Source: Escherichia phage vB_EcoS_PTXU06
Direction: 5' to 3' (one strand)
Sequence record: NC_073064.1
DNA: 45,904 bases
Shown: positions 25,601 through 45,904 of the stretch, piece by piece
How the letters are laid out: each line of letters begins with the position of its first letter
How positions within the stretch are numbered: the first letter of the stretch is position 1
Made by a program: the position numbers and the translations under genes
The notes under the pieces: generated by a model
Database searches by the model: none
What the model was told of the DNA's origin: nothing
Seen by the model: the letters and a program-made list of their open reading frames with translations, nothing else

Positions 25601-26051
25601 TAACCATGCCGGTGGCAACGCCACATACCGCCTTAAGGCTGGCGTGACGTATAACGGGACTTACTACGATGCCGGTATGCAGCTTTCAGTTGTTGCGGAA
25701 GGTGGCGAGGTTAAATCCCGCATCGCGTTCAAGGCGGACCAGTTCTACATCATGCACCCATCTAACGGGTCGCTTTCGTCCGCGTTTATCGTGGACGGCG
25801 GCGCGGTGTATATTGACACGGCACGCATCAAGGACGCGACTATCAACTTCGCGCAGATCACGGACACGCTGCAATCGAATAACTATGACGGCTACTCGCG
25901 TGGCTGGCGCTTAGGGAAAGACGGAACGTTTATCAACCTGGGAACCGGTAACGGTGGCGGGGCGATGAAAATGACGAATGACACAATCAGCGTAAAGGAT
26001 TCTAACGGAGTTTTGCGAGTTCAGATTGGTAAAATCACGGGGGGTTGGTGA
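22629..26051 (+). CDS. host specificity protein J-like central tail fiber
   Basis: 1140 aa; N-terminus (HKGGGGKQHTPQE...) resembles lambda J-family proteins; terminal gene of the tail-tip operon. Confidence 0.85.
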   Translation: MTIIYDVTGHKGGGGKQHTPQETPDSLHSLAKIRILLALGEGEFESITSASELRQRVYLDGTPIQNADLSENFPGARVEFRPGTQHQDVIHGFSAVESEQSVGVKLENGTPWVRQINDTSLDAVRIRIGIPALYTNEDNGDLVGGRIDYKIVVYTDNADPREFNFAAVGKTMSLYERDHRIELPPNVNTGWRVEVHRTTADSTSAKVVNDIRVQSITEIIDARLRYPLTALLFVEFDAKAFQNIPRVSIKCKGRKVLIPNNYDPINHTYSGDWDGTFKRAWTDNPAWHWYDICITERFGLGRRIKPQMLNRYALYQIAQRCDQLVSDGNGGREIRFKNDMYIQSQTDAWTVLKDLAAIFAGMTWWGNQMLNIVSDQPVAAVSHTITNASVIDGRFDYASGSQKTRYSTFAVAYGNPKNHYDDAIATGQRVELVRRHKINRLDITAIGCTRESEAQRRGHWALISNQLDQQVSFKVGMEGLFFIPGSVVAIADTNISGGFETRGGRLLSDPGTRTVLNTDSEITFRPGDKFLVRTDSGNVETREIASVNGNKVTLKTALDADPIPDQPFCVDGDDIQLQKFRITDLEYDDSTSTFSVRGIEYNDSKYDAVDNGARLDPGIFTQVPDGVMKGPESVTITPSQISSQGQLITNVDIVFPPVKDAVVYEIQWRRTSLQNMAIQWGNDWVNIPRTASNGAHIPNVFSGNYQARVRAIGMGEISSPWVESAITPVEGRLGGLNAPIITNAISGLHQILWKWNHNNAATDISYTELEVRKTGETEWKFLTNVPYPGAEYAQTSLEFGIYQQLRARVADKIGNLSDWSDPFEGQVSDKVDEYMKGLDDEFLTSEDGKRFQEAIDTIPQGIYEAMLTDAQQLFNARAEYKGIYAEISVAYNVAADAHKAVAQLETLIGTRLDDAEAAIHTLQTAQSTHEQAFAQYQQTVAAKFGEQEAAIQQVQTATADVAGALAEYKTQVAAQFGQQSAAIEQKMTSTFNHAGGNATYRLKAGVTYNGTYYDAGMQLSVVAEGGEVKSRIAFKADQFYIMHPSNGSLSSAFIVDGGAVYIDTARIKDATINFAQITDTLQSNNYDGYSRGWRLGKDGTFINLGTGNGGGAMKMTNDTISVKDSNGVLRVQIGKITGGW

Positions 26052-26054
26052 TAT

Positions 26055-26076
26055 AGGGGCTTCGGCCCCTTCTATC
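26055..26076. terminator. bidirectional terminator-like hairpin
   Basis: AGGGGC-TTCG-GCCCCT hairpin between convergent genes; weak T-tract. Confidence 0.4.
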
Positions 26077-26689
26077 AATCGTATTTAGCCGCATCTATTG
26101 CGAGTATGGATGGTGAATAATAAACGCCGAGCGGCCCTGGTGTGTGGGCGACTTGCTTAGATATCGAATAAATGCTTGTTCCGGATGCGCCGGATTGTGA
26201 TTCATAAATCGCGTGCCCACCAATCTGAGGGGTGGGAACCGAGTTTATTGCCGTTTGTTGTGGCGATACGGCACATGTATACCCCAGATTAACATCAAAA
26301 GACAGACCATTTATCGGTATTTGGTGGGCCTCCAGCGGCAGCATTTTCCCGTGGTACACCATATTCCCAGCAGAATTATAGAATGCGATCCCGTAGTCTC
26401 CTGGCGGGGTAACCATATCACTAAAAGCATAAACCTTAATCCATCCGGGATTGTCGGTCTTGTCTAGCCGGAGCGCATGGTAACCCCCGTTATTTATGTG
26501 AGAGAATGCGGTGTACGCTCGCCCGCCCATCCTCACAAAGAAAAAGCACACGCGATCGAATGGTATTGGCGTTGTAAAAACAGAACCGCTATACACCCCC
26601 ATATCACCGCGACTTATTAAATTAACAGGCGTAAAATCCGGGCTTAACCAAATGGACCCATCCGGCTTTGTGATCTGCATTCCGTACAT
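26075..26689 (-). CDS. hypothetical protein
   Basis: 204-aa ORF with GGGGG RBS; 1-nt gap from the upstream ORF; no recognisable motif. Confidence 0.5.
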   Translation of the reverse strand: MYGMQITKPDGSIWLSPDFTPVNLISRGDMGVYSGSVFTTPIPFDRVCFFFVRMGGRAYTAFSHINNGGYHALRLDKTDNPGWIKVYAFSDMVTPPGDYGIAFYNSAGNMVYHGKMLPLEAHQIPINGLSFDVNLGYTCAVSPQQTAINSVPTPQIGGHAIYESQSGASGTSIYSISKQVAHTPGPLGVYYSPSILAIDAAKYD

Positions 26690-26690
26690 G

Positions 26691-26990
26691 CTACCCCCAA
26701 TACGTATATATAAATCTTGATTCGCCAGCGTTAAAGCCGCTCCAGGAGACAGTGTTGTCGCTTACGGATATTGATGGCGCACCCCAAGATGTGCCGTTCC
26801 AGGTATGCGTACCAACGTAACCTGCCTTTAAACTTTTCCCCGGCGGACGGTTGTGATACGTCTTGCTCCCGGATGGTTGTGTGAATTTGTCAAGAAAAAA
26901 AACCGGCGTTAACAGGCCTGTGACGTCACGACCATGTTCGTCATAAATCGCGTACCCATAGTTACTCACTTCTACACTCCACAATTTCAA
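26691..26990 (-). CDS. hypothetical protein
   Basis: 99-aa ORF, translationally coupled to the downstream gene. Confidence 0.45.
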   Translation of the reverse strand: MKLWSVEVSNYGYAIYDEHGRDVTGLLTPVFFLDKFTQPSGSKTYHNRPPGKSLKAGYVGTHTWNGTSWGAPSISVSDNTVSWSGFNAGESRFIYTYWG

Positions 26991-27231
26991 ATTTATCTTC
27001 GCTTTGCCATCTGTGAACGAAAGTTACAAATTTCTGTGATGGGGCTACTCGGTATTGTTTTTCGCCAAATCGGTTTTCACGCACCGCGTTTAGTTTAACA
27101 GGGTAGCTATCGTTTACGGGGAATGTTTTAACCGCATATTGGCCTACGCAATCGATAGCCTTGTAGTTGCCGTCTGGCGATGCGGAGCAACCGGACAAAA
27201 GAACCGCACAAATCATAATTAAAGTTTTCAT
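26962..27231 (-). CDS. small lipoprotein (candidate superinfection-exclusion / receptor-blocking protein)
   Basis: Start at the internal ATG with GGAGA RBS; signal peptide with lipobox L-S-G-C (MKTLIMICAVLLSGCSA); sits between two tail fiber genes. Confidence 0.5.
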   Translation of the reverse strand: MKTLIMICAVLLSGCSASPDGNYKAIDCVGQYAVKTFPVNDSYPVKLNAVRENRFGEKQYRVAPSQKFVTFVHRWQSEDKFEIVECRSE

Positions 27232-27311
27232 GGTATCATCTCCTATATTTGGTTGAGTTTTAGTATTACACCGCTCGATCAAGAATGCAACCAATTTACG
27301 AGGATTTAGCT

Positions 27312-29135
27312 ATGGCAGCGGGCACACTATCCGTAACGAATAACAGCAAGGCGGTTGTAGGGGTCGGGACAACGTTTACCGCGTTTAACGCTGGCGACTT
27401 CTTAACGCTGGTGGTAGGGCAAGTCCCCTACACCGTAGCAATCGCGTCCGTTGAAAGCGAAACCGCGCTTACGCTGGTGTTACCGTTCGACGGCCCAACG
27501 GCAACCGGCCTTGCGTGGGATGGCGTTAAGCGCGATACCATGTCACTGGCGACGATGGGCGTAACCGTACAGGCACAGAAAGCATTGCGCTTGATGCTTG
27601 CAGATGAAAACAACTGGCGTGCAATCTTCGGCGACGCTGAAGAAATAACCGTGACGTTGCCTAACGGGCAGGTAATGCAGGGTATGTCATGGGGATATCT
27701 GTCGCAGTTGATGAAACAGGTCGACCCAGTTGAGATGCGCAACCTGCAACAGCAAGCCGCCGCATCTGAAGCAGCCGCGCAGGGATACCGGAACGAGGCC
27801 GAAGGCTTCAAGACCGAGACGGCGGGCATTCGCGACGCCACCAATCAGATTAAGGCGGATACGCAGGCGATCCACGACGCCACTAATACCATCAAGACGC
27901 AGACTGACCTGATTAAGACTGATACTCAGGCCATCAAGGACCAGACGAACCAGATCAAGACTGACACCGGCGTTATTCGTGACGAAGCCAATATGGCGAA
28001 GACTGACGCGCAGGCCGCCAGCGCTGCCGCGCAGGGATTTCGCGATCAGGCCGAAGAATGGGCGCAAAGCGTAAACCCCGACAATCTGCTAACCAAATCC
28101 GGCAACCTCGCCGGGCTTGCGGACAAAAGTGCGTCGTGGGCTAACCTTATGCCGTCAGGACCGCTTCGCGTAGGTGCGGACCCCGTAAACACCCTGGACG
28201 CTGCGACTAAAGGGTGGGTGTGGCGCGGTCTTGATGACGTGGGGCTTTGGGGTTTACGCAATAACTACGCTTCAGAACCCGCAGGGGGTGCAGAAGTATA
28301 CGGCGGGCGCTTTGACTCCTCTGTGAACGTCGCAGGGACCGAAAAATACAGAATGTCGATACAGCTTCAGGGGCGTAATAACGTAGACGCCTGGACACGT
28401 TTGGCGACCGCTGACGTCCGCAGCATGGCGAACGCGGCGACGTGGGACTTTAAATATGATGGCAAGATTATTTTCAATAAGGGATTGAGTCCATCGTCCA
28501 CCTCGGCGTCGCCAGGTAATACCTACGTAACCCTTGCGAATACATGGATGGACAGCCAATACTCGGGACACGTCGGCTTTGTTGGAGGCGGGGCGGGGAC
28601 GAGTGGTGGCGGGTGGCGTAACTTTATTTCGTTCGGCGCGCTGATCCACCCGCCCACCGGTAACTCGCACCCCCATGCTATGATTGCGCAGGTCTTTGAT
28701 TATGATTTGGCGTCCGGGACACAGCCTAACGGCGATAGCGTTCGAAACACTACATTCAACCCCGAAGCATACGATATCACCTTCGGCAACAACTTAGGGA
28801 CTGTTAACTATATTTTCGCAAAGTCCCCGGTATCCGATAGGGCGCTGAAGCATGATATCGCCCGGATCGATACTCAAGTTGCGTACGATAACGTTATGAC
28901 TATGGAGTACTCGTCCTTTGTTTATAACTACGACAAAAAAGAGACGGTTAGACGTGGTTTTATCGCGCAGCAGTTGGAAGAGATCGACCCGCAGTATGTC
29001 CGCAAGTACACCAACGCAACCGGTAAAGAGTTTCTGGCATTAGATGAAAACGTCCTACTACTTGACCTAATCGCGACTGTTCAGCATTTGGCGGCGAAGG
29101 TTGAGGCGTTAGAAAGTAAGTTAGCGGAGAAATGA
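27312..29135 (+). CDS. side tail fiber with C-terminal intramolecular chaperone-like domain
   Basis: Start at ATG 27312 with GAGGA RBS; repetitive T/Q/D-rich shaft (IKTDTQAIKDQTNQIKTDTG); C-terminal SDRALKHDI...coiled coil resembles S74-type auto-cleaving chaperone domains. Confidence 0.7.
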   Translation: MAAGTLSVTNNSKAVVGVGTTFTAFNAGDFLTLVVGQVPYTVAIASVESETALTLVLPFDGPTATGLAWDGVKRDTMSLATMGVTVQAQKALRLMLADENNWRAIFGDAEEITVTLPNGQVMQGMSWGYLSQLMKQVDPVEMRNLQQQAAASEAAAQGYRNEAEGFKTETAGIRDATNQIKADTQAIHDATNTIKTQTDLIKTDTQAIKDQTNQIKTDTGVIRDEANMAKTDAQAASAAAQGFRDQAEEWAQSVNPDNLLTKSGNLAGLADKSASWANLMPSGPLRVGADPVNTLDAATKGWVWRGLDDVGLWGLRNNYASEPAGGAEVYGGRFDSSVNVAGTEKYRMSIQLQGRNNVDAWTRLATADVRSMANAATWDFKYDGKIIFNKGLSPSSTSASPGNTYVTLANTWMDSQYSGHVGFVGGGAGTSGGGWRNFISFGALIHPPTGNSHPHAMIAQVFDYDLASGTQPNGDSVRNTTFNPEAYDITFGNNLGTVNYIFAKSPVSDRALKHDIARIDTQVAYDNVMTMEYSSFVYNYDKKETVRRGFIAQQLEEIDPQYVRKYTNATGKEFLALDENVLLLDLIATVQHLAAKVEALESKLAEK

Positions 29136-29139
29136 GAAT

Positions 29140-29164
29140 AAGGGGCCATACGGCCCCTTTTTTA
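29140..29164. terminator. bidirectional rho-independent terminator
   Basis: AAGGGGCC-ATAC-GGCCCCTT hairpin followed by TTTTTT at the switch from plus to minus transcription. Confidence 0.65.
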
Positions 29165-29737
29165 GTTTGAGTTTTCCCAGTCCATTTTGCGCCGCACCAG
29201 CGGGCTTTCAAAGTATTCCTTGCCCTCAACTTCCACCAAAGGCCAGTCGTTCACAATCACGTACGGCTCCGCGATATCCTCAATCACGCCGTGCGCGCTT
29301 TGCGGCCCTAACGACACACCAACCAGGATAACCCCGGCAACTCGACGAGTGAGATACTCGCGAGCGCAACGTGCCTCAACCAGCCCCCTACGGATGCCGC
29401 TGGTGGCCTTAACCTCGTACGCCCAAACGGCATCAATCATATGTTCCCGGAAGTCGGGACCAGACTTTACCTTGCGTTTGCCGACCATGATAATATCGCC
29501 GCGGTCGATAGTGTTAGCGCTAAACAGGCCGGTACGCATTAGCAAACCTTGAGGGATACAGCTACGCCCGCCCGCCTGCCCTTCTAGGTACATGCCCGCA
29601 AACATCTCACCCAGCACACCTACAAGGCGGCTTTGTTTGCACGCGTCAGACTTTAAGCGCCACTGTTCAAACTCTATGCTTGCGATCATTGCTGCGAGGT
29701 GGAATTGTTTACCGGTTATTTCATATTCGCCGTACAT
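29162..29737 (-). CDS. hypothetical protein, possible PD-(D/E)xK-type nuclease
   Basis: 191 aa; GDIIMVGK...IDAVWAYEVKAT resembles a D...ExK nuclease core (weak). Confidence 0.4.
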   Translation of the reverse strand: MYGEYEITGKQFHLAAMIASIEFEQWRLKSDACKQSRLVGVLGEMFAGMYLEGQAGGRSCIPQGLLMRTGLFSANTIDRGDIIMVGKRKVKSGPDFREHMIDAVWAYEVKATSGIRRGLVEARCAREYLTRRVAGVILVGVSLGPQSAHGVIEDIAEPYVIVNDWPLVEVEGKEYFESPLVRRKMDWENSN

Positions 29738-29778
29738 TGTGAATCCCTCATTGATGCGGGCCGAAGCCCGCGATTAAA

Positions 29779-30231
29779 TTATTTAAGTGCGCCAGTCACC
29801 AGTGTTTTTTCCATGTTGCGGAAATCTTCCGGCGTCATGAGGATTTTGGACCCATCTTCGCCGGTGAGCACGACCATAGGCCGGGCGTCTTGATCTGCGG
29901 TGGGGCAACCTTTGAGGCTTTCAAACTGTTCTGCCGTTGTATCGATCTGAATCTCGTCGTGTACGGTCATGTACGACTCGCCCAGCAAGGCCGCATACGC
30001 TACCAGGTCGACGATATTGTCTTCCTGGTGCTTACGGTGCTGGCGCACCAGCTTCAGGCAGATCAAGAAGGTCCATGCTTCTTGCTCGGTCAGGTCGCGA
30101 CCGGTAAGCGCGTTAAACACGGCAGCGATCTGCTTAGCACTTCGTTCTTCTTTCTCGCCGTCATAGCCGTTTTCTTTCCCGCGCTGTTCCATAGTGGTGG
30201 CGGCGTTTTTGCAGTATTCGTATGCTTTCAT
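29779..30231 (-). CDS. hypothetical protein
   Basis: 150-aa ORF downstream of the candidate promoter at 30278-30307. Confidence 0.5.
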   Translation of the reverse strand: MKAYEYCKNAATTMEQRGKENGYDGEKEERSAKQIAAVFNALTGRDLTEQEAWTFLICLKLVRQHRKHQEDNIVDLVAYAALLGESYMTVHDEIQIDTTAEQFESLKGCPTADQDARPMVVLTGEDGSKILMTPEDFRNMEKTLVTGALK

Positions 30232-30307: not shown

Positions 30308-30765
30308 GTAAATTTTGCAACATTTATTGCGTAAATTTTCGGAACCAGATCGCTGCACGCCCGACGAATTGCCGCGATGTTCTTCTCGCAATCTTCAATG
30401 ATGACCAGTTCCGACACGTCCGCATAGCAGACCATTTTGAACACGGCGCACGCCTTAAACTCAGGCGGTGGGGTGTCGTCCAGCATGTGGCGCATAAACA
30501 ACCGACCGACAGGGAAGACCTCCAGTTGCTCGGCGGTAGTCTCCCAGCATTCTCGCTGCCGGTTTGTCAGATACGCGATCTCGAAGCCTTGCTCTTTATA
30601 CATGCTCAACAGCGGCAGCATATCCATGTTAAGGTCTTCGCGTACGTGCGCTTTGTGCCACTTCGCCCAAAATGTTGATTTGGTTTTTATACCTGGAACC
30701 AGGTCGGCGCGTGCATCACTCGAACCATTAATAACGCCATCAAGATCACAAATCAGTAGTTTCAT
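30295..30765 (-). CDS. HAD-superfamily hydrolase, putative 5'(3')-deoxyribonucleotidase-like
   Basis: N-terminal LLICDLDGVI matches the HAD motif I (DxDG) as in phage and eukaryotic 5'-nucleotidases. Confidence 0.5.
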   Translation of the reverse strand: MKLLICDLDGVINGSSDARADLVPGIKTKSTFWAKWHKAHVREDLNMDMLPLLSMYKEQGFEIAYLTNRQRECWETTAEQLEVFPVGRLFMRHMLDDTPPPEFKACAVFKMVCYADVSELVIIEDCEKNIAAIRRACSDLVPKIYAINVAKFTCNQ

Positions 30766-30986
30766 TGTAAGCTCTCAATAAGGGTGTATCGGACGCTGCG
30801 CGCGGAAAACTTGTTACACACAAGATGCCAACGGGCGGTTATGACCAGCCAGCCGGTAAGATCCAGGCCCAGGATATATTCTGGACGTGACACGCGCTTC
30901 ACACGATCGCGGCGCGGGTCGATGTTATAGTCTATTTGCATTCGGACTACTACCGCAGGGTCGCGGTCAACGATTAAGATATTCAA
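30762..30986 (-). CDS. hypothetical protein
   Basis: 74-aa ORF overlapping both neighbours. Confidence 0.4.
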   Translation of the reverse strand: MNILIVDRDPAVVVRMQIDYNIDPRRDRVKRVSRPEYILGLDLTGWLVITARWHLVCNKFSARSVRYTLIESLQ

Positions 30987-31452
30987 GGAGTTCTCCTTCG
31001 CTCATTATTTCAATTTGTGCGCTGCCGATGGGTGGCGCTTCGTCAAAGATTATCAATTGCTGGCACTTGTTATTGCTCGGCCCGACTTCGCCGGTGACGG
31101 CGTGAATGAATCTAATCCGCCAGTCCAGAAGAATTATCAGGTTTGCAGTCTTCCGGGCCAGCTTCGCCCACTTCGTCGACGTGTCCTGATTCAGTAGCAT
31201 GACAGTCCGGCGTCCGTGCGCTGCGCACTCAACCCACGGCAGCGGATCGGAATACGGCGGATTGCACCACTTCCACCCTTTCAACTCTGCCCAGTCCACA
31301 TCAAGCGCGCTGTGCTCTGCCGTGAAGTAACGCGGTAGCAGATGGTTGGCGTCGCTTGCCGCCATGTCATAACGGAATCGGTACTTCCGGCGCAGCGGTT
31401 TAAATAAAGCTGGCGGCGTGCGCCAGCTATCTTTTTGCTCACTCTTCTGCAT
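30967..31452 (-). CDS. DNA N6-adenine methyltransferase (phage Dam-like)
   Basis: 161 aa; N-terminal WRTPP and catalytic NPPYS motif typical of small phage N6A methyltransferases. Confidence 0.75.
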   Translation of the reverse strand: MQKSEQKDSWRTPPALFKPLRRKYRFRYDMAASDANHLLPRYFTAEHSALDVDWAELKGWKWCNPPYSDPLPWVECAAHGRRTVMLLNQDTSTKWAKLARKTANLIILLDWRIRFIHAVTGEVGPSNNKCQQLIIFDEAPPIGSAQIEIMSEGELLEYLNR

Positions 31453-31903
31453 GGTCGGTGTCTATCGCATAAAGTGGAGTCTTACCACCTTTATTGATGA
31501 CGCGCTGCACGCGCTTTGCTTCCTCGACACTAAGCGGGCGCGCGTTCGGGTAGATGCTGCCGTTTGTAGGGTTGCGCCACGCCATGAGCACAAGGTCTTT
31601 CCGGGCGATCGAAGACTGGCGGCTCTTCGGACGCACGTACTCCTCGGCCCGTTTGCAATGCTCGCGCAGACCTTCGGCAGTGATGCGGTTTAATGCAACG
31701 CTGGTTGTGTATCCGGTGCGCTGCATAATACCCATCAACTCATACAGCAGTTCGAAGCGCTCCTCTAATTCCTTGCGCGCCTTCTTCTCGCCTACATATA
31801 GCGCATGGTTGGTGTCCGCCACCGCGTTCGCACGTTCGGCCTGATCGCGGGCTTCTAGGCATTGCGCGGCCCAGTATGCTTTTTCTTCTTGTAAAATTTT
31901 CAT
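31439..31903 (-). CDS. hypothetical protein
   Basis: Start at the internal ATG with GGAG RBS (track start 31963 lies inside a terminator hairpin); coiled-coil-like. Confidence 0.5.
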   Translation of the reverse strand: MKILQEEKAYWAAQCLEARDQAERANAVADTNHALYVGEKKARKELEERFELLYELMGIMQRTGYTTSVALNRITAEGLREHCKRAEEYVRPKSRQSSIARKDLVLMAWRNPTNGSIYPNARPLSVEEAKRVQRVINKGGKTPLYAIDTDHAEE

Positions 31904-31922
31904 CGTGTCGACTCCAGGTATT

Positions 31923-31949
31923 AAAAAAGGGCGTCCAAACCGGACACCC
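31923..31949 (-). terminator. rho-independent terminator (minus strand)
   Basis: On the minus strand GGGTGTCC-GGTTT-GGACGCCC followed by TTTTTT. Confidence 0.55.
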
Positions 31950-31951
31950 TC

Positions 31952-31980
31952 AATATAATGCAACCAATATGATTATGCAA
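31952..31980 (-). promoter_or_regulatory. candidate promoter (-35 TTGCAT, 17-bp spacer, -10 TATATT) built on two ATGCAACCAAT copies
   Basis: Motif copies at 31958-31968 and 31975-31985; hexamers read on the minus strand. Confidence 0.35.
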
Positions 31981-31985
31981 CCAAT

Positions 31986-32303
31986 TTACGCATAAAAATT
32001 CGGGTCGCGCGCGACGTCTACCAGATACAGGTTGCTGATTCGGTTGCCGTAGTGGCCTGGTGTTCGCTGGCGGCACACAACGGCGTAGCCTGGAGGAATT
32101 GTATTGCCGGTCGCGATAATCCACGCCACGCGTGCGCCCGATAGAGTTTTGCCGTTGCATTCGATGCGCGTGCCGCCATCGGCGGTATTGAGGTTGCCAA
32201 TTTTGCAGCCGGTGGACTTCAGACGAATGACGCCGGTTTTGCTGTCGTAGGAGAATAACTGGTTAGTCATTGCAACCGAAAAATCGATGGCTTCGAATGT
32301 CAT
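31986..32303 (-). CDS. HNH_3-like (homing-endonuclease-like) protein, possibly degenerate
   Basis: 105 aa; ARVAWIIATG and GNRISNLYLV resemble HNH_3 proteins but the canonical D-H is replaced (VCRQ); ATGA-coupled to the upstream methyltransferase-like gene. Confidence 0.4.
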   Translation of the reverse strand: MTFEAIDFSVAMTNQLFSYDSKTGVIRLKSTGCKIGNLNTADGGTRIECNGKTLSGARVAWIIATGNTIPPGYAVVCRQRTPGHYGNRISNLYLVDVARDPNFYA

Positions 32304-32995
32304 TTTAAATTTTCCTCGTTAACCGCTATCGCGAAGCCGCGCGGAGTGAGCGACCTGATTAATTTGGTGCGGGCAGATTTGCCTCCGAGGCGACTATACT
32401 GCTTCGAGTACCCTTTTTCAACGAATACAGGCTTTTTCTCTGGCATACGGAAGCCGTTGCCGGTCCATAAGCAGGTCAGCTTCGGATATGAATCACGGGC
32501 GTTGATGTATTCAGGGAATAGCGGGTGCACGTCATCCTCCGGCAAATAGCCGCCATACTCCCACGGGTCAAACGAGTGGTCAGGCTTACGCCATTGAGTG
32601 GAGAGCACGCTGCGCGGGTTCTCAATCAGATACGGCACTTCAAAGAAATCACCCAGGTAAGCGGCGATCTTCGCGGTGCGTACCGCCTTAAGCTGGAAGG
32701 CAGGGTCGCTGGCGCGTTTGCGCGGGAAAGCTGGCGCACCGCTAACCGCCAGATCCGTACACGGCGGGAATGCATAAATGATGTCCGGCGTGCCGAAATC
32801 ACCATTCATCGCACGGTCCACGAAGTCCAGATCGATAAACTCATTGCGATACCGGATTCCGCGACCATAAATCCGGTAGTCAAGGTAAGACCCGTGATCG
32901 GCTTCGGAGTAGTTGAAGCAATAACACTTATGCCCCATCTCGGCAGCACGCTCAATCATCAAGCCGCTGCCGTCGAACAATGACCAGATTATCAT
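32300..32995 (-). CDS. putative DNA (cytosine-5)-methyltransferase-like protein, copy 1
   Basis: 231 aa; LFDGSG (motif I-like), FPPC (motif IV-like catalytic Cys), LIENP (motif VI-like); unusually short for a C5 methyltransferase. Confidence 0.5.
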   Translation of the reverse strand: MIIWSLFDGSGLMIERAAEMGHKCYCFNYSEADHGSYLDYRIYGRGIRYRNEFIDLDFVDRAMNGDFGTPDIIYAFPPCTDLAVSGAPAFPRKRASDPAFQLKAVRTAKIAAYLGDFFEVPYLIENPRSVLSTQWRKPDHSFDPWEYGGYLPEDDVHPLFPEYINARDSYPKLTCLWTGNGFRMPEKKPVFVEKGYSKQYSRLGGKSARTKLIRSLTPRGFAIAVNEENLK

Positions 32996-33168
32996 TTGCG
33001 CGCCTTTTTAGCTTTCATGTATTCCATTAAATCATCCTGAATATCGCGCTTACTGTCGCGACGCTCGGCGACCAGTTCGTCCAGCGTCCCGCGAGCCTGG
33101 ATAATGTAGACGAATACGGGTCGAGGGTGTCCTGCTTGCATCTGGCGAACCGGCCCGATACGTTCAAC
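32992..33168 (-). pseudogene. duplicated 3' fragment of the helicase gene (last ~58 codons)
   Basis: Identical to 34056-34232; the 90-aa track ORF here is a junction chimera of the helicase C-terminus with out-of-frame sequence. Confidence 0.6.
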
Positions 33169-33367
33169 TGCCGGTCGCGATAATCCACGCCACGCGTGCG
33201 CCCGATAGAGTTTTGCCGTTGCATTCGATGCGCGTGCCGCCATCGGCGGTATTGAGGTTGCCAATTTTGCAGCCGGTGGACTTCAGACGAATGACGCCGG
33301 TTTTGCTGTCGTAGGAGAATAACTGGTTAGTCATTGCAACCGAAAAATCGATGGCTTCGAATGTCAT
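33169..33367 (-). pseudogene. truncated 5' copy of the HNH-like gene
   Basis: First ~64 codons identical to 31986-32303, then broken at the duplication junction. Confidence 0.55.
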
Positions 33368-34059
33368 TTTAAATTTTCCTCGTTAACCGCTATCGCGAAG
33401 CCGCGCGGAGTGAGCGACCTGATTAATTTGGTGCGGGCAGATTTGCCTCCGAGGCGACTATACTGCTTCGAGTACCCTTTTTCAACGAATACAGGCTTTT
33501 TCTCTGGCATACGGAAGCCGTTGCCGGTCCATAAGCAGGTCAGCTTCGGATATGAATCACGGGCGTTGATGTATTCAGGGAATAGCGGGTGCACGTCATC
33601 CTCCGGCAAATAGCCGCCATACTCCCACGGGTCAAACGAGTGGTCAGGCTTACGCCATTGAGTGGAGAGCACGCTGCGCGGGTTCTCAATCAGATACGGC
33701 ACTTCAAAGAAATCACCCAGGTAAGCGGCGATCTTCGCGGTGCGTACCGCCTTAAGCTGGAAGGCAGGGTCGCTGGCGCGTTTGCGCGGGAAAGCTGGCG
33801 CACCGCTAACCGCCAGATCCGTACACGGCGGGAATGCATAAATGATGTCCGGCGTGCCGAAATCACCATTCATCGCACGGTCCACGAAGTCCAGATCGAT
33901 AAACTCATTGCGATACCGGATTCCGCGACCATAAATCCGGTAGTCAAGGTAAGACCCGTGATCGGCTTCGGAGTAGTTGAAGCAATAACACTTATGCCCC
34001 ATCTCGGCAGCACGCTCAATCATCAAGCCGCTGCCGTCGAACAATGACCAGATTATCAT
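33364..34059 (-). CDS. putative DNA (cytosine-5)-methyltransferase-like protein, copy 2
   Basis: Translation identical to copy 1. Confidence 0.5.
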   Translation of the reverse strand: MIIWSLFDGSGLMIERAAEMGHKCYCFNYSEADHGSYLDYRIYGRGIRYRNEFIDLDFVDRAMNGDFGTPDIIYAFPPCTDLAVSGAPAFPRKRASDPAFQLKAVRTAKIAAYLGDFFEVPYLIENPRSVLSTQWRKPDHSFDPWEYGGYLPEDDVHPLFPEYINARDSYPKLTCLWTGNGFRMPEKKPVFVEKGYSKQYSRLGGKSARTKLIRSLTPRGFAIAVNEENLK

Positions 34060-35480
34060 TTGCGCGCCTTTTTAGCTTTCATGTATTCCATTAAATCATC
34101 CTGAATATCGCGCTTACTGTCGCGACGCTCGGCGACCAGTTCGTCCAGCGTCCCGCGAGCCTGGATAATGTAGACGAATACGGGTCGAGGGTGTCCTGCT
34201 TGCATCTGGCGAACCGGCCCGATACGTTCAACGATCTGCGAAAAGTGCTCAAAGTTCCAGGTATCGGAGAAGATTGCCAGGTGATGACCGCCGTCCTGCA
34301 AGTTAAGGCCGTGGCCCGCCGATGCCGGGTGTGCAAACATGATGGGGATCTCGCCTCTGTTCCACGCCTCCATATCCTTATTGCCCTGCTTACCTTTACC
34401 CAACGCAACGCCGTGCGGAAATTTCTTCTTAAGACGTGCCAGGTCATGCTTATACTGATACGCAACGAGCAACGGCGCGCCGTTCAACTCCTCCACGATA
34501 CTTTCCAGCGCGTCCAGCTTCGCGTCGTGAATCTTCACCCACTCGTCGGTCCGTTCGCCGTCTTCGTCGACTTTATACACAGCCCCCGAAGCAAGCTGAA
34601 GGCACTTAATAGTCTTCGATGCAGCGTTCGCCGCCTCCACAGTTCCGCTTTCCAGTTCCGCAAATAACTCCGCTTCGAACTGGTCATAAATCTTGCGGGC
34701 TTTCTTCGGCAGGTCCACAACAACCGGCGTATATATTGGCTTGTCGCATCCGAAGTATTCCGCCGCGTCAACGGTTAGCGACACGTCGGACAGGCGTTGT
34801 TGGATCTCTTTCTCGGAGTTCTTAAGCGGGGCGTGCTGCATAGAGAAGCTGCCAGGCTTAACAGGCTTGCTAATGAACCAGCGATCGGTAAATGCCTTAT
34901 AGCTACTGCCGAGGCGTTCGCCACCGTCGACAAACCACGTTTGCCCCCACAGATCTTTCAAGCCATTTGGCGCTGGTGTGCCGGTAAGGTTAATCCAGCG
35001 CTTGACGTGCTTATGTGCGATCGCCGCCAGTGCGCGTGCGCGCTTACTACCCTGCTTACTTCGGTAGCCTTTCAGCTTAGTGGATTCATCGGCAACAACC
35101 ACCGTAAAGGGCCACGCATCGCCGTAATAGTCGACCAGCCACTCAACCACATCGTAGTTAACACAAACCACGTTAGCGTCGCTCTCAAGCGCGGCAATAC
35201 GGTCCTTCTCCGGTCCGGTGCCGTCTACGACCAGCAGGGATGAGAACCGCCATTTCTCCTGTTCCGGGGGCCATGTACCCGACGCAACACGCAGCGGGGC
35301 CAGCACCAGTACGCGGTCCTCATGATGGGACAGGATGCCAGTCTGGAACATTTTGTTCAGCGCCCACATTGTCGCGCCGGTTTTACCCGACCCCATTGTC
35401 GCCCAGATATTGCATCGCTTATGCTTGAGGATGAACGCGGTAATCAACTTCTGATATTCGCGGCGTCGGAATCGTGCCAT
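34056..35480 (-). CDS. SNF2/DEAD-like helicase
   Basis: Walker A GSGKTG, DExx box VVADEST, C-terminal helicase motif QIVERIGPVRQ; start taken at ATG 35480 (MARFRRR); the track ORF extends to a GTG at 35570 overlapping the upstream gene. Confidence 0.8.
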   Translation of the reverse strand: MARFRRREYQKLITAFILKHKRCNIWATMGSGKTGATMWALNKMFQTGILSHHEDRVLVLAPLRVASGTWPPEQEKWRFSSLLVVDGTGPEKDRIAALESDANVVCVNYDVVEWLVDYYGDAWPFTVVVADESTKLKGYRSKQGSKRARALAAIAHKHVKRWINLTGTPAPNGLKDLWGQTWFVDGGERLGSSYKAFTDRWFISKPVKPGSFSMQHAPLKNSEKEIQQRLSDVSLTVDAAEYFGCDKPIYTPVVVDLPKKARKIYDQFEAELFAELESGTVEAANAASKTIKCLQLASGAVYKVDEDGERTDEWVKIHDAKLDALESIVEELNGAPLLVAYQYKHDLARLKKKFPHGVALGKGKQGNKDMEAWNRGEIPIMFAHPASAGHGLNLQDGGHHLAIFSDTWNFEHFSQIVERIGPVRQMQAGHPRPVFVYIIQARGTLDELVAERRDSKRDIQDDLMEYMKAKKARK

Positions 35481-35484
35481 GTCT

Positions 35485-35703
35485 TTATTCCGCCTTTTTC
35501 CAGACTTCGGTTTCACTGTTCCAGTTCCTTTTTGTGGCGTCGTAGTTGGTGGCGTGTCCGATGTGGACACCGGTAGCCCGGAAGCTCTTAAATTTTTGCC
35601 AGCACACCGTCAACGGCAGCGGATCATTCATGCCCGCGATAAACCATACGCGATCGCCCGGTTTACATTCGCCCAGCTTGGTGAGTCGGTAATGTTCTTT
35701 CAT
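35485..35703 (-). CDS. hypothetical protein
   Basis: 72 aa from the ATG with GGGAGA RBS at 7-nt spacing; preceded by a terminator. Confidence 0.4.
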   Translation of the reverse strand: MKEHYRLTKLGECKPGDRVWFIAGMNDPLPLTVCWQKFKSFRATGVHIGHATNYDATKRNWNSETEVWKKAE

Positions 35704-35716
35704 CGTCATGTCTCCC

Positions 35717-35739
35717 AAAAATGGCGGGACAAGCCCGCC
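35717..35739 (-). terminator. rho-independent terminator (minus strand)
   Basis: GGCGGG-CTTGT-CCCGCC hairpin followed by ATTTTT on the minus strand. Confidence 0.55.
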
Positions 35740-35746
35740 GTATTAA

Positions 35747-35920
35747 TTATTTTTGTTCTGCACGGTAGCGGCGCTGCCGTTCGCGCTCTTTCTTATTGCG
35801 GCACGATTTGCACTCTGCCCGATACCCGTCTGGACTGCGCGCAGTCTTACCGGTGTATTTGTGGAACTGGGATAGCGGCTTTACACAGCCGCAATTACTA
35901 CAACGTTTTTCTTCAATCAT
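35747..35920 (-). CDS. small zinc-ribbon protein (CxxC...CxxC), basic C-terminus
   Basis: Start at the internal ATG with GAGGA RBS; CSNCGC...CKSCRNKKERERQRRYR. Confidence 0.4.
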   Translation of the reverse strand: MIEEKRCSNCGCVKPLSQFHKYTGKTARSPDGYRAECKSCRNKKERERQRRYRAEQK

Positions 35921-35951
35921 CTCTAAAATCCTCGATATGGCTAACCGGCAC

Positions 35952-35980
35952 ACTATACCGCTATGCGACCAATTCAGCAA
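35952..35980 (-). promoter_or_regulatory. candidate promoter (-35 TTGCTG, 17-bp spacer, -10 TATAGT) with ATTGGT-type motif variants
   Basis: Read directly on the minus strand; motif variants at 35963-35973 and 35977-35985. Confidence 0.3.
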
Positions 35981-36239
35981 CCAATAAATCGCAGTCGGAT
36001 ATGTTGTCGATAACGCGAACGTCAGCACCGCGGCGGGCCATTCGCTCATGTTCACGTACCTGGTGCGGCTTCGGTTTTCCTCCGGGGCGCTTCACTTCGA
36101 CGAACACTATTTTGCCGTTGATGATAATAATCAGGTCGGGCGCACCCGCGCGCCCCTCCCATGCCAGTTTGCGGCAGAATCCGCCTACCTCTTTCACCCG
36201 TCGCTTCAGGTGACTTTGAATCTTGCCCTCTGGTGTCAT
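35961..36239 (-). CDS. VRR-NUC domain nuclease
   Basis: PDLIIIINGKIVFVEVKRPGGKPKPHQ matches the VRR-NUC D...E.K core; start at the internal ATG (track start 36311 overlaps the polymerase gene). Confidence 0.55.
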   Translation of the reverse strand: MTPEGKIQSHLKRRVKEVGGFCRKLAWEGRAGAPDLIIIINGKIVFVEVKRPGGKPKPHQVREHERMARRGADVRVIDNISDCDLLVAELVA

Positions 36240-36270
36240 AATCTTATTCCCGTCAAAAGCAACATTTCCG

Positions 36271-38562
36271 CTACTTGCGGTAGCGATACATGCAATCGCC
36301 TTCGGCGGCAAGTGGGAAGCCTTTCGCCCATACAGGCAGGTCGCACATCAGCGCGCAAAGCTCCTCGGTCGTGTAGTCGTCGGTGTCGGGCACTTCTGTG
36401 ATCAATTCATCATGCACCGACAGGACGATTTCATACCCCGCAGCTTCAACGCCGGGCATGGACCATGCGAGAATATCGCGACACAACGCCTGCACTATGT
36501 TCTCCGTAAGTTTGCCGCCGTAGGTATACTGGAAGCCCCACTGGCGCGTCGTCTGATTCTCGCCCTGGTATTTGATGCGGGTGCTGGTACGCTTCTTGCC
36601 GGTGTCTTCGTCAATCTCGGTCGTGACAGACAGTGCGATGCCTGGGTAGCTCATGATGCGCCCTGACGGCAACTCAATTTTAAGCCACCACCCTGCCGCG
36701 TTCGGGTCGTCGCGCTCCTCGTCGAAGGTTGGGTCATGCTTCGCCTTCGTACGGACAATCTTGAGCGCTTTTCTACCGTCCGGGCGAACGTTCGCGCCAG
36801 CCCAGTATGCTTTGCCCGGATTGCGGATTGCACACAACACCGCGTCCTCCAGCTCGGCCCAAAAGGCTACCGTCTTCGGGTGCGCCTCACGCCACATACG
36901 TTTGATTGCGTCACAAGTAAGCCATACGTTTTTCGGCAGTATGTATGTTGGGCGCTCGTCTTTCTTACCTGGCTTCGGCGGGCGTTTCGCTTCGTTAATG
37001 CGGGCGTACTCATAGCCGCGTTTCGCCGCCGCCCAAATGTGATCCGGGAACGTGCCTTTCATCACGTCCGCCATAGTGTAAAGGTCGAGGCCCAGGTTTT
37101 TAGCGAACTGCAAGAACGCCGCGACGCCGCCACCATAGCCCAGTCCCAATTCGCACGCCTTACCAATCTGGCGTAAGTCCTTGCGGTTGGCTTTAATGTA
37201 ATCCGGGTCAAGGCCGAACATCTTACCGGCAGTCTCGCAATAGATATCGCGACCGGACTTAAAGACCATTAACGCTGTTTTCTCGCCAGCGATCCAGGCA
37301 AGGCCGCGCCCTTCCACGTTGGAGTAGTCCGCTACGACAAACTTCTTGCCCTTAGCCGGAATAATGCACCCGCGAACGGTCGAGGCGGTCAGCTTAGATA
37401 TGTCATACGCCCAGTGCGCTGTCCCACGTAACAGGGAGTTGATGCCGTTGGTGAGCATGTGCGACCGGACCCAAAAAGCGACGTCGCTCTCGCCTTCGCG
37501 GCGCTTAATCTTCCCTTCGTGGTCGTCGCTATACTCGCCGCGTGCCAGGTTTTGCGGCTGGAAGCCTTTACCAGCCCAGCGCAGCGTGCGCTTTGCGCCA
37601 CCATACTGAAGACACCCACGGCGGCGACCATCTGCGGATAGGCCATTAACTAGCGGATTGTACTTAGTCGATGCCGTTGATGACGCACCGAGGCGCATTT
37701 CGATAAGCGCTTTGCCTTCGTCGGGGAAGTCCGGGTCTTCAAGCAGGTCGTTAAGTGTGGATTTCTGCGCGTTGTGGATTGTGAACGCCGGGGCGATATC
37801 ACGCAGGATTGGCAGGAAGTCATTGCCTGTCAGCTTACCGCCAAATCGCTCCCAGGCTTCTTCCTTCAATTCTTCCTTATGCGCCTGCACCGCTTTGATC
37901 GCGGCGTTCGCCAGGTCAACGTCCACATAGAAGCCGCGGTCGTTGATCAACTGGTCGATAAGCAGGATTTCATCTTCCTTCGGAGTATTACCCCAGTCCG
38001 GTATGCGCCAGTAGACTTCACGCATTGCGATAATATCCAGCGCGGCATAGCGCAGAAATTTGGCCCATTCTTCCGGGTGAGTCTCGCGAGTGTAGCGGCG
38101 TATTTTGTAGGTCTTAGGGGTAGGCTTACAGAATCGTTTAATCAGCGCCTTACCTGCCTTATCCTTCGCGTGCTCTGCGTCAACGCCCAGCACCTGGCAC
38201 TGCATATCGAGGCTACCCGGCAGCGCGTGGCGAAAGGCCATAATCATGGTGTCTTCGATCTGGCTTACCGGCAGGTCGATGCCCCACTTCTCACGGATAA
38301 CCAGGCGGTCAAACAGGAGGCCGTTAGCCATCACTATTTTTGCTTTCTTGCGGGATACATGGCGGAGCGCCTTGCGCAGTTCACGCGGCATTGTGGGGGA
38401 TTCAGTGCAATCCCATGTCTGCACGCGGCCTTCGTCGATGGCGTAGGTGCAAATCATAATCTCGGTGGTTTGGTGCTCCGCGTAGGCGTACGCCCCAACT
38501 TTCTTCAGGTCCACCCCGCTAAATGTCTCGGTATCGAGAAACAGGCGTTCGAAGTCTTTCAT
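36271..38562 (-). CDS. DNA polymerase I (family A) with 3'-5' exonuclease domain
   Basis: 763 aa; N-terminal exonuclease motif LFLDTETFSG (D-x-E); C-terminal polymerase motifs including LSVHDELITEV. Confidence 0.9.
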   Translation of the reverse strand: MKDFERLFLDTETFSGVDLKKVGAYAYAEHQTTEIMICTYAIDEGRVQTWDCTESPTMPRELRKALRHVSRKKAKIVMANGLLFDRLVIREKWGIDLPVSQIEDTMIMAFRHALPGSLDMQCQVLGVDAEHAKDKAGKALIKRFCKPTPKTYKIRRYTRETHPEEWAKFLRYAALDIIAMREVYWRIPDWGNTPKEDEILLIDQLINDRGFYVDVDLANAAIKAVQAHKEELKEEAWERFGGKLTGNDFLPILRDIAPAFTIHNAQKSTLNDLLEDPDFPDEGKALIEMRLGASSTASTKYNPLVNGLSADGRRRGCLQYGGAKRTLRWAGKGFQPQNLARGEYSDDHEGKIKRREGESDVAFWVRSHMLTNGINSLLRGTAHWAYDISKLTASTVRGCIIPAKGKKFVVADYSNVEGRGLAWIAGEKTALMVFKSGRDIYCETAGKMFGLDPDYIKANRKDLRQIGKACELGLGYGGGVAAFLQFAKNLGLDLYTMADVMKGTFPDHIWAAAKRGYEYARINEAKRPPKPGKKDERPTYILPKNVWLTCDAIKRMWREAHPKTVAFWAELEDAVLCAIRNPGKAYWAGANVRPDGRKALKIVRTKAKHDPTFDEERDDPNAAGWWLKIELPSGRIMSYPGIALSVTTEIDEDTGKKRTSTRIKYQGENQTTRQWGFQYTYGGKLTENIVQALCRDILAWSMPGVEAAGYEIVLSVHDELITEVPDTDDYTTEELCALMCDLPVWAKGFPLAAEGDCMYRYRK

Positions 38563-38787: not shown

Positions 38788-39573
38788 TTAACGGCGGCGA
38801 CGTTTACGTGGTGCTTCGTCTTCGTCGTCTTCGTCCTCATCTTCGTCATCGCGGGACTTGCGGCGTTTGCGAGGTTTTTCATCTTCGTCTTCGTCGTCGT
38901 CATCGCGGCGCTTGGATTTCTTGGACTTGCGCGGCTTGTCATCTTCATCATCGTCATCACGACGTTTTGACTTCTTAGCCTTGCGCGGTGCTTCGTCTTC
39001 GTCGTCGTTGTCCAGGTCTTCATCGGAGCAAGAAGACCCGCCACCGCCGAAGGATTCACCGTCATCACGGAAGCGTAAACCCAGCAAGCCAGCACCGAGT
39101 CCCTTGCCGTTGGTGTTGTTCCACGCCCAAATATCAAGGGACACGTTGCAATAACAACCGGAGTAGATCTCCTGGCCTTCAATCTCGTCGCCGTCGATGG
39201 TCAGACCCTGTTCAGTCTGCTTCTCGCCGAGTGACGTTTGAATGATAGGCTGTTTGAACGATTTGGCGTTGATGTACAACATGCCTTCGAATTCTTCGGT
39301 AACTTCGTCGCGCTCGTCACCGTCGCGAACTGCACATTCCTTAGAATCCTGGGCATAGTGGCGGTCCATCCACTTATCGGCATTCTTCTCGGATTTCAGC
39401 TTGTCGGTGAGCACTGCGCGTGCTGCCGCTTCCACTTTGTCCACCTGCGGATCTTCTTTATCCAGAAGAATCACGGCACGGTATGCCGGTTTTTGCCCAT
39501 CCTGTTTAGGGGTATCACGTTCCCAAATTTTCAGGAAGCATACGCGCACATTTTTCAGGTTGACTTTAGCCAT
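38788..39573 (-). CDS. putative ssDNA-binding protein (DUF2815-like) with repetitive mixed-charge C-terminal tail
   Basis: Start at ATG 39573 with GAGGA RBS (MAKVNLKNVRVCF...); three tandem RRDDDDEDE-KPRK-KKSK repeats at the C-terminus. Confidence 0.45.
   Translation of the reverse strand: MAKVNLKNVRVCFLKIWERDTPKQDGQKPAYRAVILLDKEDPQVDKVEAAARAVLTDKLKSEKNADKWMDRHYAQDSKECAVRDGDERDEVTEEFEGMLYINAKSFKQPIIQTSLGEKQTEQGLTIDGDEIEGQEIYSGCYCNVSLDIWAWNNTNGKGLGAGLLGLRFRDDGESFGGGGSSCSDEDLDNDDEDEAPRKAKKSKRRDDDDEDDKPRKSKKSKRRDDDDEDEDEKPRKRRKSRDDEDEDEDDEDEAPRKRRRR
38820..39010. repeat. about 3 tandem ~60-bp coding repeats
   Basis: Repeated CTTCGTCGTC...CATCGCGGCGCTTG...CTTGCGCGG units read directly. Confidence 0.6.
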
Positions 39574-41947: not shown

Positions 41948-42463
41948 TTAATCTTCCAGTTCGAAATAGGTTTCGACGATTTCTTTTAGCTCTTTGTGGA
42001 AGTCTTCGACGTCGTCATCTTCCAGCTTGGCGATTGATTTGATCTCGAACGATTCCAGCAGGTCGTCGAATTCGTCGTTCGCATCGTCGTCATCACCACC
42101 GGCGATAATCGCGGCATACTGTTTGATTTCGTCGCGCATCTCCGCCAGCGGATCGGCATCTTTCTTACCTTTGCCTTTCGCCGGTGCTTTCTTAGACTTA
42201 GCCGGTTTTTCGTCTTCGGCATCGTCGTCGTCATCTTCTACGACTTCTTTTTTAGCCTTACCTTTCGCCGGTGCTTTTTTAGCTTTAGCCGGTTTTTCGT
42301 CTTCGGCGTCATCGTCGTCATCTTCGACAACTTCTTTTTTGGCCTTAGACGGCTTCTTGTCTTCCTGTTTACCAACGGCAGCGCCAACGGTTTCATAATG
42401 CTTTGCAATGGTTTCCAGTGCTACTACGCCGCGAGTGATCAGGTTTACGATTTGCTCAAACAT
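41948..42463 (-). CDS. acidic repeat protein (possible early protein)
   Basis: Start at ATG 42463 with GGAGA RBS; two tandem ~32-aa Lys/Ala- and Asp/Glu-rich repeats; very acidic C-terminus; first gene downstream of a strong candidate promoter. Confidence 0.5.
   Translation of the reverse strand: MFEQIVNLITRGVVALETIAKHYETVGAAVGKQEDKKPSKAKKEVVEDDDDDAEDEKPAKAKKAPAKGKAKKEVVEDDDDDAEDEKPAKSKKAPAKGKGKKDADPLAEMRDEIKQYAAIIAGGDDDDANDEFDDLLESFEIKSIAKLEDDDVEDFHKELKEIVETYFELED
42167..42356. repeat. 2 tandem ~96-bp coding repeats
   Basis: Read directly; encode KKEVVEDDDDDAEDEKPAK(A/S)KKAPAKGK repeats. Confidence 0.65.
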
Positions 42464-45471: not shown

Positions 45472-45546
45472 ATTTTGCGCGCATTGGTTGCCGATATGGG
45501 AATTCCCATATCGCCAAAAGATTAAATTTTGCGCGCATTGGTTGCC
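45462..45546. repeat. two 31-bp direct repeats flanking a perfect 20-bp palindrome
   Basis: AAAAGATTAAATTTTGCGCGCATTGGTTGCC at 45462-45492 and 45516-45546; GATATGGGAATTCCCATATC at 45493-45512. Confidence 0.85.
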
Positions 45547-45605
45547 ATTTTGGGTGTTTTTATCCGGTCGTATTGGTTGCCGTGTAATGTAAATATAGTG
45601 AATAG

Positions 45606-45790
45606 TTATGCAGTTTTATTGCATAAACTAAGCGGGACAAAAAGCGGGACAGCCAAGGGGCGGGACAAAGCGGGACAGCACCCCCGTCCCGCCCCGGATG
45701 GCGCGGCCTAGAGAGGAGCGGGACAGCGGGACAGCACCCCAGTCTTTCAGACTAGACGGGGGTCAACGGCCCCCCTCGTCTGAGACTGCA
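45606..45790. repeat. iteron cluster B: about 8 GCGGGACA boxes plus a long imperfect palindrome
   Basis: Roughly 85% identical by eye to 16967-17150, with small indels. Confidence 0.8.
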
Positions 45791-45904
45791 TAAAATCCGG
45801 GGATTGCAAAATACACGGCAGCATGATGCGAAGTGCGGTCGCGGATGAACTAGGCAACCAATGCGAGTTGTATTATGCGGAGTGAAAAACGCGGTTTGCA
45901 GATT

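Follow-up and report, generated by a model that had tools for sequence, protein, structure and literature searches.

Tandem gene amplification is known in viruses, with the K3L 'gene accordions' of poxviruses and the tandem duplications of lambda and T4 as examples. In E. coli phages, microhomology is usual at the junctions formed by illegitimate recombination. In the genus Dhillonvirus, headful packaging, permuted genomes and circularising assemblies have been described with the help of PhageTerm for the phages Opt-212 and BF9 (PMC9022532; PMC10059673), and headful packaging entails that the genomes are circularly permuted. Repeated ends are also found in deposited records. The record of SECphi18 keeps an end overlap of 55 bp, the length of the SPAdes k-mer, and that of the Dhillonvirus WF5505 contains a perfect 2,026-bp repeat at its two ends, which its authors listed as a 'TR' of 2,025 bp (Table S4 of PMC6563267).

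The window analysed here, i.e., the whole stretch of 45,904 bp, is the genome of Escherichia phage vB_EcoS_PTXU06 (genus Dhillonvirus, GenBank MK373789), a sibling of WF5505 from the same study. In that study (Korf et al. 2019; PMC6563267), single contigs were assembled with HGAP3 or SPAdes, and, if no ends could be detected, the contigs were re-arranged to fit related published phages. The PTXU06 record starts 176 bp from the start of WFI and WF5505. No duplication or terminal repeat of PTXU06 is reported in the paper, and its Table S4 gives no TR for this phage. The GC content listed in the same table (54.44%) fits the 45,904-bp version with the repeat described below, indicating that this was the version that the authors analysed. 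The sequencing technology used for each phage is given neither in the paper nor in its supplement (PMC6563267). Long reads of the PacBio type would have been capable of resolving a genuine tandem duplication of 1 kb, which speaks against an artefact, as does the fit of the published GC content to the repeat-containing version.

The repeat and the genes that it contains

Direct comparison of the two copies of the repeat (Table 1) disclosed 0 mismatches over 1064 positions. The copies are adjacent, and identity ended sharply at both outer edges of the unit. The same 1064-bp tandem repeat was recovered by a blastn self-comparison of the window, the second-best internal repeat having a length of 189 bp and an identity of 87%. 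A perfect repeat of 1 kb cannot have arisen by chance.

The unit comprises the 5' two-thirds of an HNH-like endonuclease gene, the whole gene of a 231-aa methyltransferase-like protein and the final 58 codons of a helicase gene. Both of its breakpoints lie within genes: the repeat begins inside the full-length HNH-like gene, after nucleotide 199, and the other breakpoint is situated 177 nt before the end of the helicase gene, the 3' end of which falls inside copy B. Since the HNH-like gene contributes its first 199 nt to the unit, a truncated 67-aa ORF spans the junction. This ORF consists of the first 66 HNH-like codons and then runs across the junction into the helicase-tail fragment; the junction also interrupts a weak HNH_3 match in this ORF (residues 58-75). 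The ATG of methyltransferase-like copy B overlaps the stop codon of the helicase gene (ATGA). No microhomology of 1-7 nt was found on either side of the 33168/33169 junction, indicating that the join is blunt; its position is arbitrary, being unrelated to gene boundaries or to sequence homology. A preliminary description of this DNA had proposed an apparently perfect tandem duplication with a 1064-bp period, and had suggested that the two copies be aligned to look for mismatches. The alignment bore out this proposal, and the other structural points of that description (two identical 231-aa ORFs, a stranded helicase tail of about 58 codons, a truncated HNH-like 5' fragment and a junction without obvious microhomology) also held when the ORF translations and the breakpoints were inspected.

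Table 1. Features in and around the repeated unit (window positions)
Feature	Position	Strand	Basis or remark
HNH-like endonuclease gene, full length, 105 aa	31986..32303	-	PHROG 99 'HNH endonuclease', E=2.5e-16
Repeat copy A, 1064 bp	32105..33168		identical to 33169-34232
DNA-methyltransferase-like gene copy A, 231 aa, QBQ80483.1/QBQ80485.1	32300..32995	-	PHROG 757, exact PTXU06 protein match
Stranded last 58 helicase codons plus stop, 177 nt, without own start codon	32992..33168	-	ORF, breakpoint analysis
Truncated HNH-like ORF, 67 aa, QBQ80484.1	33164..33367	-	ORF, protein match
Repeat copy B, 1064 bp	33169..34232		novel junction 33168/33169, …CGTTCAAC/TGCCGG…
DNA-methyltransferase-like gene copy B, identical to copy A	33364..34059	-	ORF
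SNF2/DEAD-type helicase gene, 474 aa, QBQ80486.1	34056..35480	-	Pfam SNF2-rel_dom, E=1.7e-10; exact PTXU06 protein match

The 231-aa protein matched PHROG 757, 'DNA methyltransferase' (E=1.9e-81). No Pfam family was found for it, even at E<=10, the profile of C5 cytosine DNA methyltransferases (PF00145) being unmatched, and no sequence relative was found in the PDB. 'Methyltransferase-like' is therefore a fitting label. Strings resembling motifs (FDGSG, PPC and ENP) were spotted in the protein by eye. In an exact-protein look-up, the 231-aa sequence was limited to the NCBI record. The gene is accessory in Dhillonvirus, as it is missing from EP23 and similar phages.

Copy number in relatives and the Zar3M record

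In the phage collection, 159 records matched the region, and all of them contained a single copy except the two records of Zar3M; a single-copy record spanned about 3.54-3.79 kb, as compared to 4.6 kb for the query. Zar3M/NC_073065 was also the only entry of the collection in which the junction was contiguous. The exact junction 37-mer had zero matches in IMG/VR, and a degenerate junction pattern had zero matches in IMG/VR and in the JGI metagenomes, while the natural single-copy context, used as a positive control, matched 12 Dhillonvirus contigs of IMG/VR. The identical HNH protein was encoded by a single Logan contig (ERR2367640), which came from another phage, about 91% identical, and was single copy. 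Thus, the comparison with related phage genomes that had been called for in the preliminary description indicated one copy in about 160 genomes and in the 12 IMG/VR contigs, Zar3M being excluded as template-derived for the following reasons.

Zar3M aligned with positions 1-45901 of the window in one HSP, with 0 gaps and 6.4% difference, while natural pairs of Dhillonviruses differing by 6.7-8.9% showed 48-75 gap openings and 10-13 HSPs. The Zar3M record contains 577 scattered N, including one that occupies equivalent positions in the two copies of the repeat. Where blocks of the two sequences are otherwise the same, the only differences are at start and stop codons, and one of these edits destroys an overlapping ATG at 30763-30765. 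The same kind of colinearity links L-h 1M, a further record from the submitters of Zar3M, to 011D5. We found no primary description of the Zar3M assembly in the literature, where Zar3M is only cited (PMC10513416). Judged from these features of its sequence, Zar3M is not independent, and was evidently built with PTXU06 as a template; the gapless colinearity, the N, the codon edits and the parallel with L-h 1M and 011D5 indicate that its repeat was inherited from this template. The use of Zar3M as an independent confirmation of the repeat was rejected because of the first three of these features.

Origin of the repeat

We consider it probable that the repeat is an untrimmed overlap of contig ends that was made internal by re-linearisation, and hence a finishing artefact of MK373789. 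Reads from a circularly permuted, headful-packaged genome would assemble into a circle, and the assembler would have produced a linear contig, the two ends of which overlapped by 1064 bp. This contig may have started at window position 33169 and ended at window position 33168. If the overlap was left untrimmed, and the contig was then cut and re-joined so as to start where related phages start, the overlapping ends would have been brought head to tail. The outcome would be a perfect tandem repeat inside the record, joined bluntly at an arbitrary point, with a split HNH-like gene and a stranded helicase tail, and the true genome would have 44,840 bp and one methyltransferase-like gene.

Several observations favour an artefact. 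One is the perfect identity of the copies, together with the blunt, microhomology-free junction inside two coding sequences. Another is the presence of a single copy in all independent relatives, the other record with the junction being template-derived. Genomes of the genus are permuted and a re-arrangement step is documented in the source paper; WF5505, from the same study, retains an untrimmed 2,026-bp overlap of its ends. The preliminary description had put forward three readings, namely an assembly artefact, a very recent event and selection for gene dosage. The relatives, Zar3M, the permuted genomes of the genus, the re-arrangement step and WF5505 favour the artefact; dosage selection found no support.

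That the PTXU06 stock used for sequencing had a genuine tandem duplication of very recent origin appears unlikely. Such a duplication would have arisen by illegitimate recombination or by a replication slip during concatemer replication, adding 1064 bp and leaving two expressed copies, and would be either neutral or selected because more methylase would protect against host restriction, as in a 'gene accordion'. The repeat is indeed present in the deposited record, the published GC content fits the version that contains it, and a genome of 45,904 bp would be packageable, since genomes of the genus reach about 46 kb (rolling has 46,017 bp). Furthermore, each copy retains the full gene, the ATGA start/stop overlap and 177 nt upstream. 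The ribosome-binding context is kept in both methyltransferase-like copies, so that a real duplication would be functional, and an accessory gene of this kind is one whose dosage might matter. Against a real duplication stand the lack of an independent occurrence among about 160 relatives, IMG/VR and the JGI metagenomes, the scaffolding on PTXU06 of its sole other carrier, Zar3M, the lack of microhomology at the junction, the silence of the authors (PMC6563267) and the untrimmed overlap of WF5505. In addition, the exonuclease and the Gp2.5-like annealing protein of PTXU06 (as deduced from the annotations of its relatives) should quickly collapse a perfect 1-kb direct repeat.

It is much less likely still that the copies are genuine direct terminal repeats, i.e., that the genome has defined ends at 33169/33168 and that the repeats became internal through permutation of the contig. 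The Phage Annotation Guide mentions that terminal redundancies can end up inside contigs, and the authors assigned a 2,025-bp 'TR' to the sibling WF5505. However, the members of the genus tested with PhageTerm are headful and have no defined ends (PMC9022532; PMC10059673), the WF5505 repeat is not homologous in position to that of PTXU06 (WF5505 having one methyltransferase-like gene), and no such repeat is found in WFI and about 160 other genomes. The ends would also interrupt the coding sequences of the HNH-like protein and the helicase, and Table S4 has no TR for PTXU06. An old duplication common to PTXU06 and Zar3M, the copies of which were homogenised by gene conversion (concerted evolution), is the least credible origin. 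It would account for the presence of the repeat at the same coordinates in both records, and for the 100% identity of the two copies in either record alongside 91 differences in 1064 positions when the PTXU06 unit is compared with that of Zar3M. Gapless colinearity over 45.9 kb, compared to 48-75 indels in natural pairs, argues against it, and so do the 577 N, the gene-aware codon edits, the N at a shared offset in both copies, and the fact that L-h 1M stands to 011D5 as Zar3M does to PTXU06. Within the limits of sequence analysis, concerted evolution is refuted.

Consequences and comparison with known systems

If the repeat is a finishing artefact, the GenBank and RefSeq records of PTXU06 are 1064 bp too long and contain three spurious features, namely the second methyltransferase copy, the 67-aa truncated HNH ORF and the stranded helicase tail. 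The error would already have spread to a second RefSeq genome, that of Zar3M, and its presence in both records would affect comparisons of gene content, pangenome counts and taxonomy in Dhillonvirus. No new biology would be revealed. If the repeat is real, it would be a modest case of a lytic phage with an amplified gene: a virulent coliphage stock with a fresh, microhomology-independent duplication that doubles an accessory methyltransferase-like gene, a 'gene accordion' against host restriction.

With the direct terminal repeats of T7-like and T5-like phages, the PTXU06 repeat shares a size of about 1 kb, such a repeat appearing as a tandem pair once permuted. It differs from them in that the genus is headful, that relatives do not share the position of the repeat and that its boundaries lie inside genes. 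Like viral tandem amplifications, it is a head-to-tail perfect repeat with a whole gene that plausibly counters host defence; unlike them, it is without independent occurrence or junction microhomology. The copies of PTXU06 are adjacent and internal, unlike those of WF5505 and SECphi18, and this needs re-linearisation without trimming, a step that is documented for the study in general rather than for PTXU06 specifically (PMC6563267). With the untrimmed overlaps of WF5505 and SECphi18, the PTXU06 repeat has in common the perfect identity of the copies, boundaries that are independent of genes and a headful, permuted genus and, with WF5505, the same study and pipeline.

Structure of the repeat

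A preliminary description had reported a perfect tandem repeat with a 1064-bp unit. On alignment, nucleotides 32105-33168 (copy A) and 33169-34232 (copy B), which are adjacent at 33168/33169, showed 0 mismatches (1064/1064 positions the same by direct comparison and by blastn self-comparison), and identity ended sharply at each outer edge of the repeat pair. All genes of the region are carried by the minus strand, and the layout of ORFs and breakpoints agreed with the two 231-aa ORFs, the stranded helicase tail and the truncated HNH-like fragment that had been described. The junction (…CGTTCAAC|TGCCGG…) had been said to lack obvious microhomology, and none of 1-7 nt was indeed found on either side. 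The PTXU06 record (45,904 bp) lists the proteins of the region as QBQ80482-QBQ80486 (exact protein match) and annotates the two methyltransferase copies as gp46 and gp48, and the 67-aa junction ORF as gp47.

Genes and gene fragments of the repeat region, in order of transcription
Feature	Position	Strand	Remark
SNF2/DEAD-type helicase	34056-35480	-	first
231-aa gene, copy B	33364-34059	-	second; ATG overlaps helicase stop codon
Truncated HNH-like ORF, 67 aa	33164-33367	-	third; spans junction
Stranded duplicate of final 58 helicase codons	32992-33168	-	fourth
231-aa gene, copy A	32300-32995	-	fifth
Full HNH-like gene, 105 aa	31986-32303	-	sixth, last

The helicase matches SNF2-rel_dom (Pfam) and the 105-aa protein PHROG 99 'HNH endonuclease'. 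The 231-aa protein, annotated in relatives as a C5 cytosine methylase, matches PHROG 757 'DNA methyltransferase' (E=1.9e-81), but a Pfam search gave no family even at E<=10 and a PDB search no sequence relative. Because of this, we consider 'methyltransferase-like' to be the proper level of claim for its predicted function. The distance from the helicase tail to the HNH-like gene is only ~260-450 bp in EP23, Dru_SM5, Teewinot, Opt212 and Shigella phage 1b. The methyltransferase-like gene seems absent or replaced in these Dhillonviruses, and so may be accessory in the genus.

Other repeats of the genome

A diverged repeat of ~190 bp, 84-87% identical, occurs in two intergenic segments, 16849-17155 and 45462-45793, each of which also contains short local direct repeats. 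The segments are the counterparts of 'region A' and 'region B', described as repeat-rich in the annotation of Sodalis phage SO-1, and the pair is kept in jat, WFI, WF5505 and SECphi18. GTC/GTCTTC-rich direct repeats, which would encode runs of acidic residues, lie at 38804-39024 and 42154-42337 inside minus-strand genes (a Gp2.5-like ssDNA-binding protein homologue and a 171-aa ORF); they include a tandem pair of 87 bp at 42154-42327 (86% identity). The DNA polymerase gene (36271-38562, 763 aa) is unbroken in PTXU06, while that of SO-1 (30312-33500) contains a group I intron with an HNH endonuclease. SO-1 and SECphi18 also have an additional HNH gene adjoining the VRR-NUC gene, which PTXU06 lacks.

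Copy number in relatives and the Zar3M record

The preliminary description had raised the question of whether related phages carry one copy, and all did except Zar3M (GenBank OM262541, RefSeq NC_073065). A 4.6-kb query across the repeat matched 159 phage records, and those other than Zar3M aligned in 2-3 pieces spanning ~3.54-3.79 kb, which is the single-copy order helicase-methyltransferase-HNH; in SO-1 and jat, the repeat unit aligned in one unbroken stretch. Among phage records, a 120-bp junction probe found an unbroken match in Zar3M only. Neither the exact junction nor a degenerate junction pattern was matched in IMG/VR or JGI metagenome contigs, while the natural single-copy context, used as a positive control, retrieved 12 IMG/VR Dhillonvirus contigs. 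A Logan contig with an identical HNH protein belonged to a different phage (~91% identity) with one copy. PQ843332.1 (Escherichia phage P-GXEC-L2P5), at 88,607 bp about twice the usual Dhillonvirus length, gave many separate matches to the query, in two parts of the record, and may be a concatenated or mixed assembly.

In Zar3M (45,901 bp) the repeat occupies the coordinates that it has in PTXU06; the copies are identical to one another and differ from the PTXU06 unit at 91/1064 positions. Taken at face value, this hinted at concerted evolution or a site-specific mechanism. The two genomes aligned, however, as one HSP over 1-45901 with 2,903 differences and 0 gaps; among natural pairs of Dhillonviruses that differ to a comparable extent (6.7-8.9%), alignments break into 10-13 HSPs and contain 48-75 gap openings. 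A total of 577 of the differences are scattered single N in Zar3M, one of which recurs at equal offset in each repeat copy. The long blocks 25482-29940 and 35250-36720 are identical but for 5 differences, each in a start or stop codon, and in the ATGA overlap at 30762-30765 a TGA-to-TAA change turns the adjacent ATG into ATA. L-h 1M (OM262540.1), from the same submitters, has the length and CDS coordinates of the earlier 011D5 (MT478993.1) from another laboratory; it is gap-free against it over the first 26.9 kb, contains 78 N and shows GTG/TTG-to-ATG changes in genes otherwise identical to 011D5. Both submissions are colinear base for base with earlier records of other laboratories, sharing length and CDS coordinates with them and being virtually indel-free; in genes that are otherwise identical, GTG/TTG start codons are changed to ATG and stop codons are also altered.

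Judged from their sequences, Zar3M and L-h 1M look template-derived rather than assembled de novo. Because of the gap-free colinearity, the scattered N, the start/stop-codon edits and the L-h 1M/011D5 parallel, we conclude that Zar3M was built using PTXU06 as template and inherited the repeat. We therefore rejected it as an independent witness, and the same observations ruled out concerted evolution and a site-specific mechanism.

Origin of the repeat

PTXU06 (MK373789, genus Dhillonvirus) comes from Korf et al. 2019 (PMC6563267), where assembly of PacBio reads with HGAP3, or of Illumina reads with SPAdes (k=55), gave single contigs; those lacking detectable ends were put in the order of related published phages. 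The paper mentions no PTXU06 duplication. Its Table S4 gives no terminal repeat, 1,819x coverage, 63 CDS and a size of 42,321 bp, at odds with the 45,904-bp deposited record; the listed GC, 54.44%, is nevertheless what the 45,904-bp sequence gives.

The repeat is probably an untrimmed contig-end overlap made internal by re-linearisation. Reads from a circularly permuted genome would have given a linear contig with ends, at 33169 and 33168, overlapping by 1,064 bp; the overlap would have been left untrimmed, and when the contig was re-linearised to a conventional start, its ends would have been fused head to tail. Such a course of events would explain two copies without a mismatch, a blunt junction that lacks homology and lies within two genes, the lack of that junction in every independent relative, the silence of PMC6563267 and a comparable overlap in WF5505, a phage from the same study.

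A real, very recent tandem duplication in PTXU06 appears unlikely. The deposited record and the published GC value do contain the repeat, both methyltransferase copies retain their translational context and the longer genome fits the size range of the genus, but there is no independent occurrence, the junction lacks microhomology, and a perfect 1-kb direct repeat would be expected to be unstable with the annotated exonuclease and Gp2.5-like annealing protein. Genuine terminal repeats of a genome with fixed ends are very improbable, as the genus is reported to package by headful, the repeat position is not conserved and the ends would land within genes. An old duplication common to PTXU06 and Zar3M, homogenised by gene conversion, has almost no probability left: it is refuted because Zar3M is template-derived. 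Of the three readings initially offered (very recent event, gene-dosage selection, assembly artefact), the artefact is thus the best supported, and the repeat is most probably not real as biology. The practical relevance lies in record curation, since the error would already have been carried into a second RefSeq genome, that of Zar3M.

WF5505 (MK373790.1), also a Dhillonvirus, has a perfect 2,026-bp repeat (1-2026 = 45057-47082), given as 'TR 2,025' in Table S4 (PMC6563267), and a single methyltransferase gene; five small genes are annotated twice in it. No repeat was found in WFI, and SECphi18 keeps a 55-bp overlap of its record ends. Independent PhageTerm analysis of two genus members, Opt-212 and BF9, indicated headful packaging and permuted genomes, with assemblies that circularise (PMC9022532, PMC10059673). 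Since the genus is reported to package in this way, the WF5505 repeat more probably represents an overlap left untrimmed in a circular assembly. WF5505 would resemble PTXU06 in its untrimmed overlap, but has it at the record ends and at another, non-homologous place in the genome.
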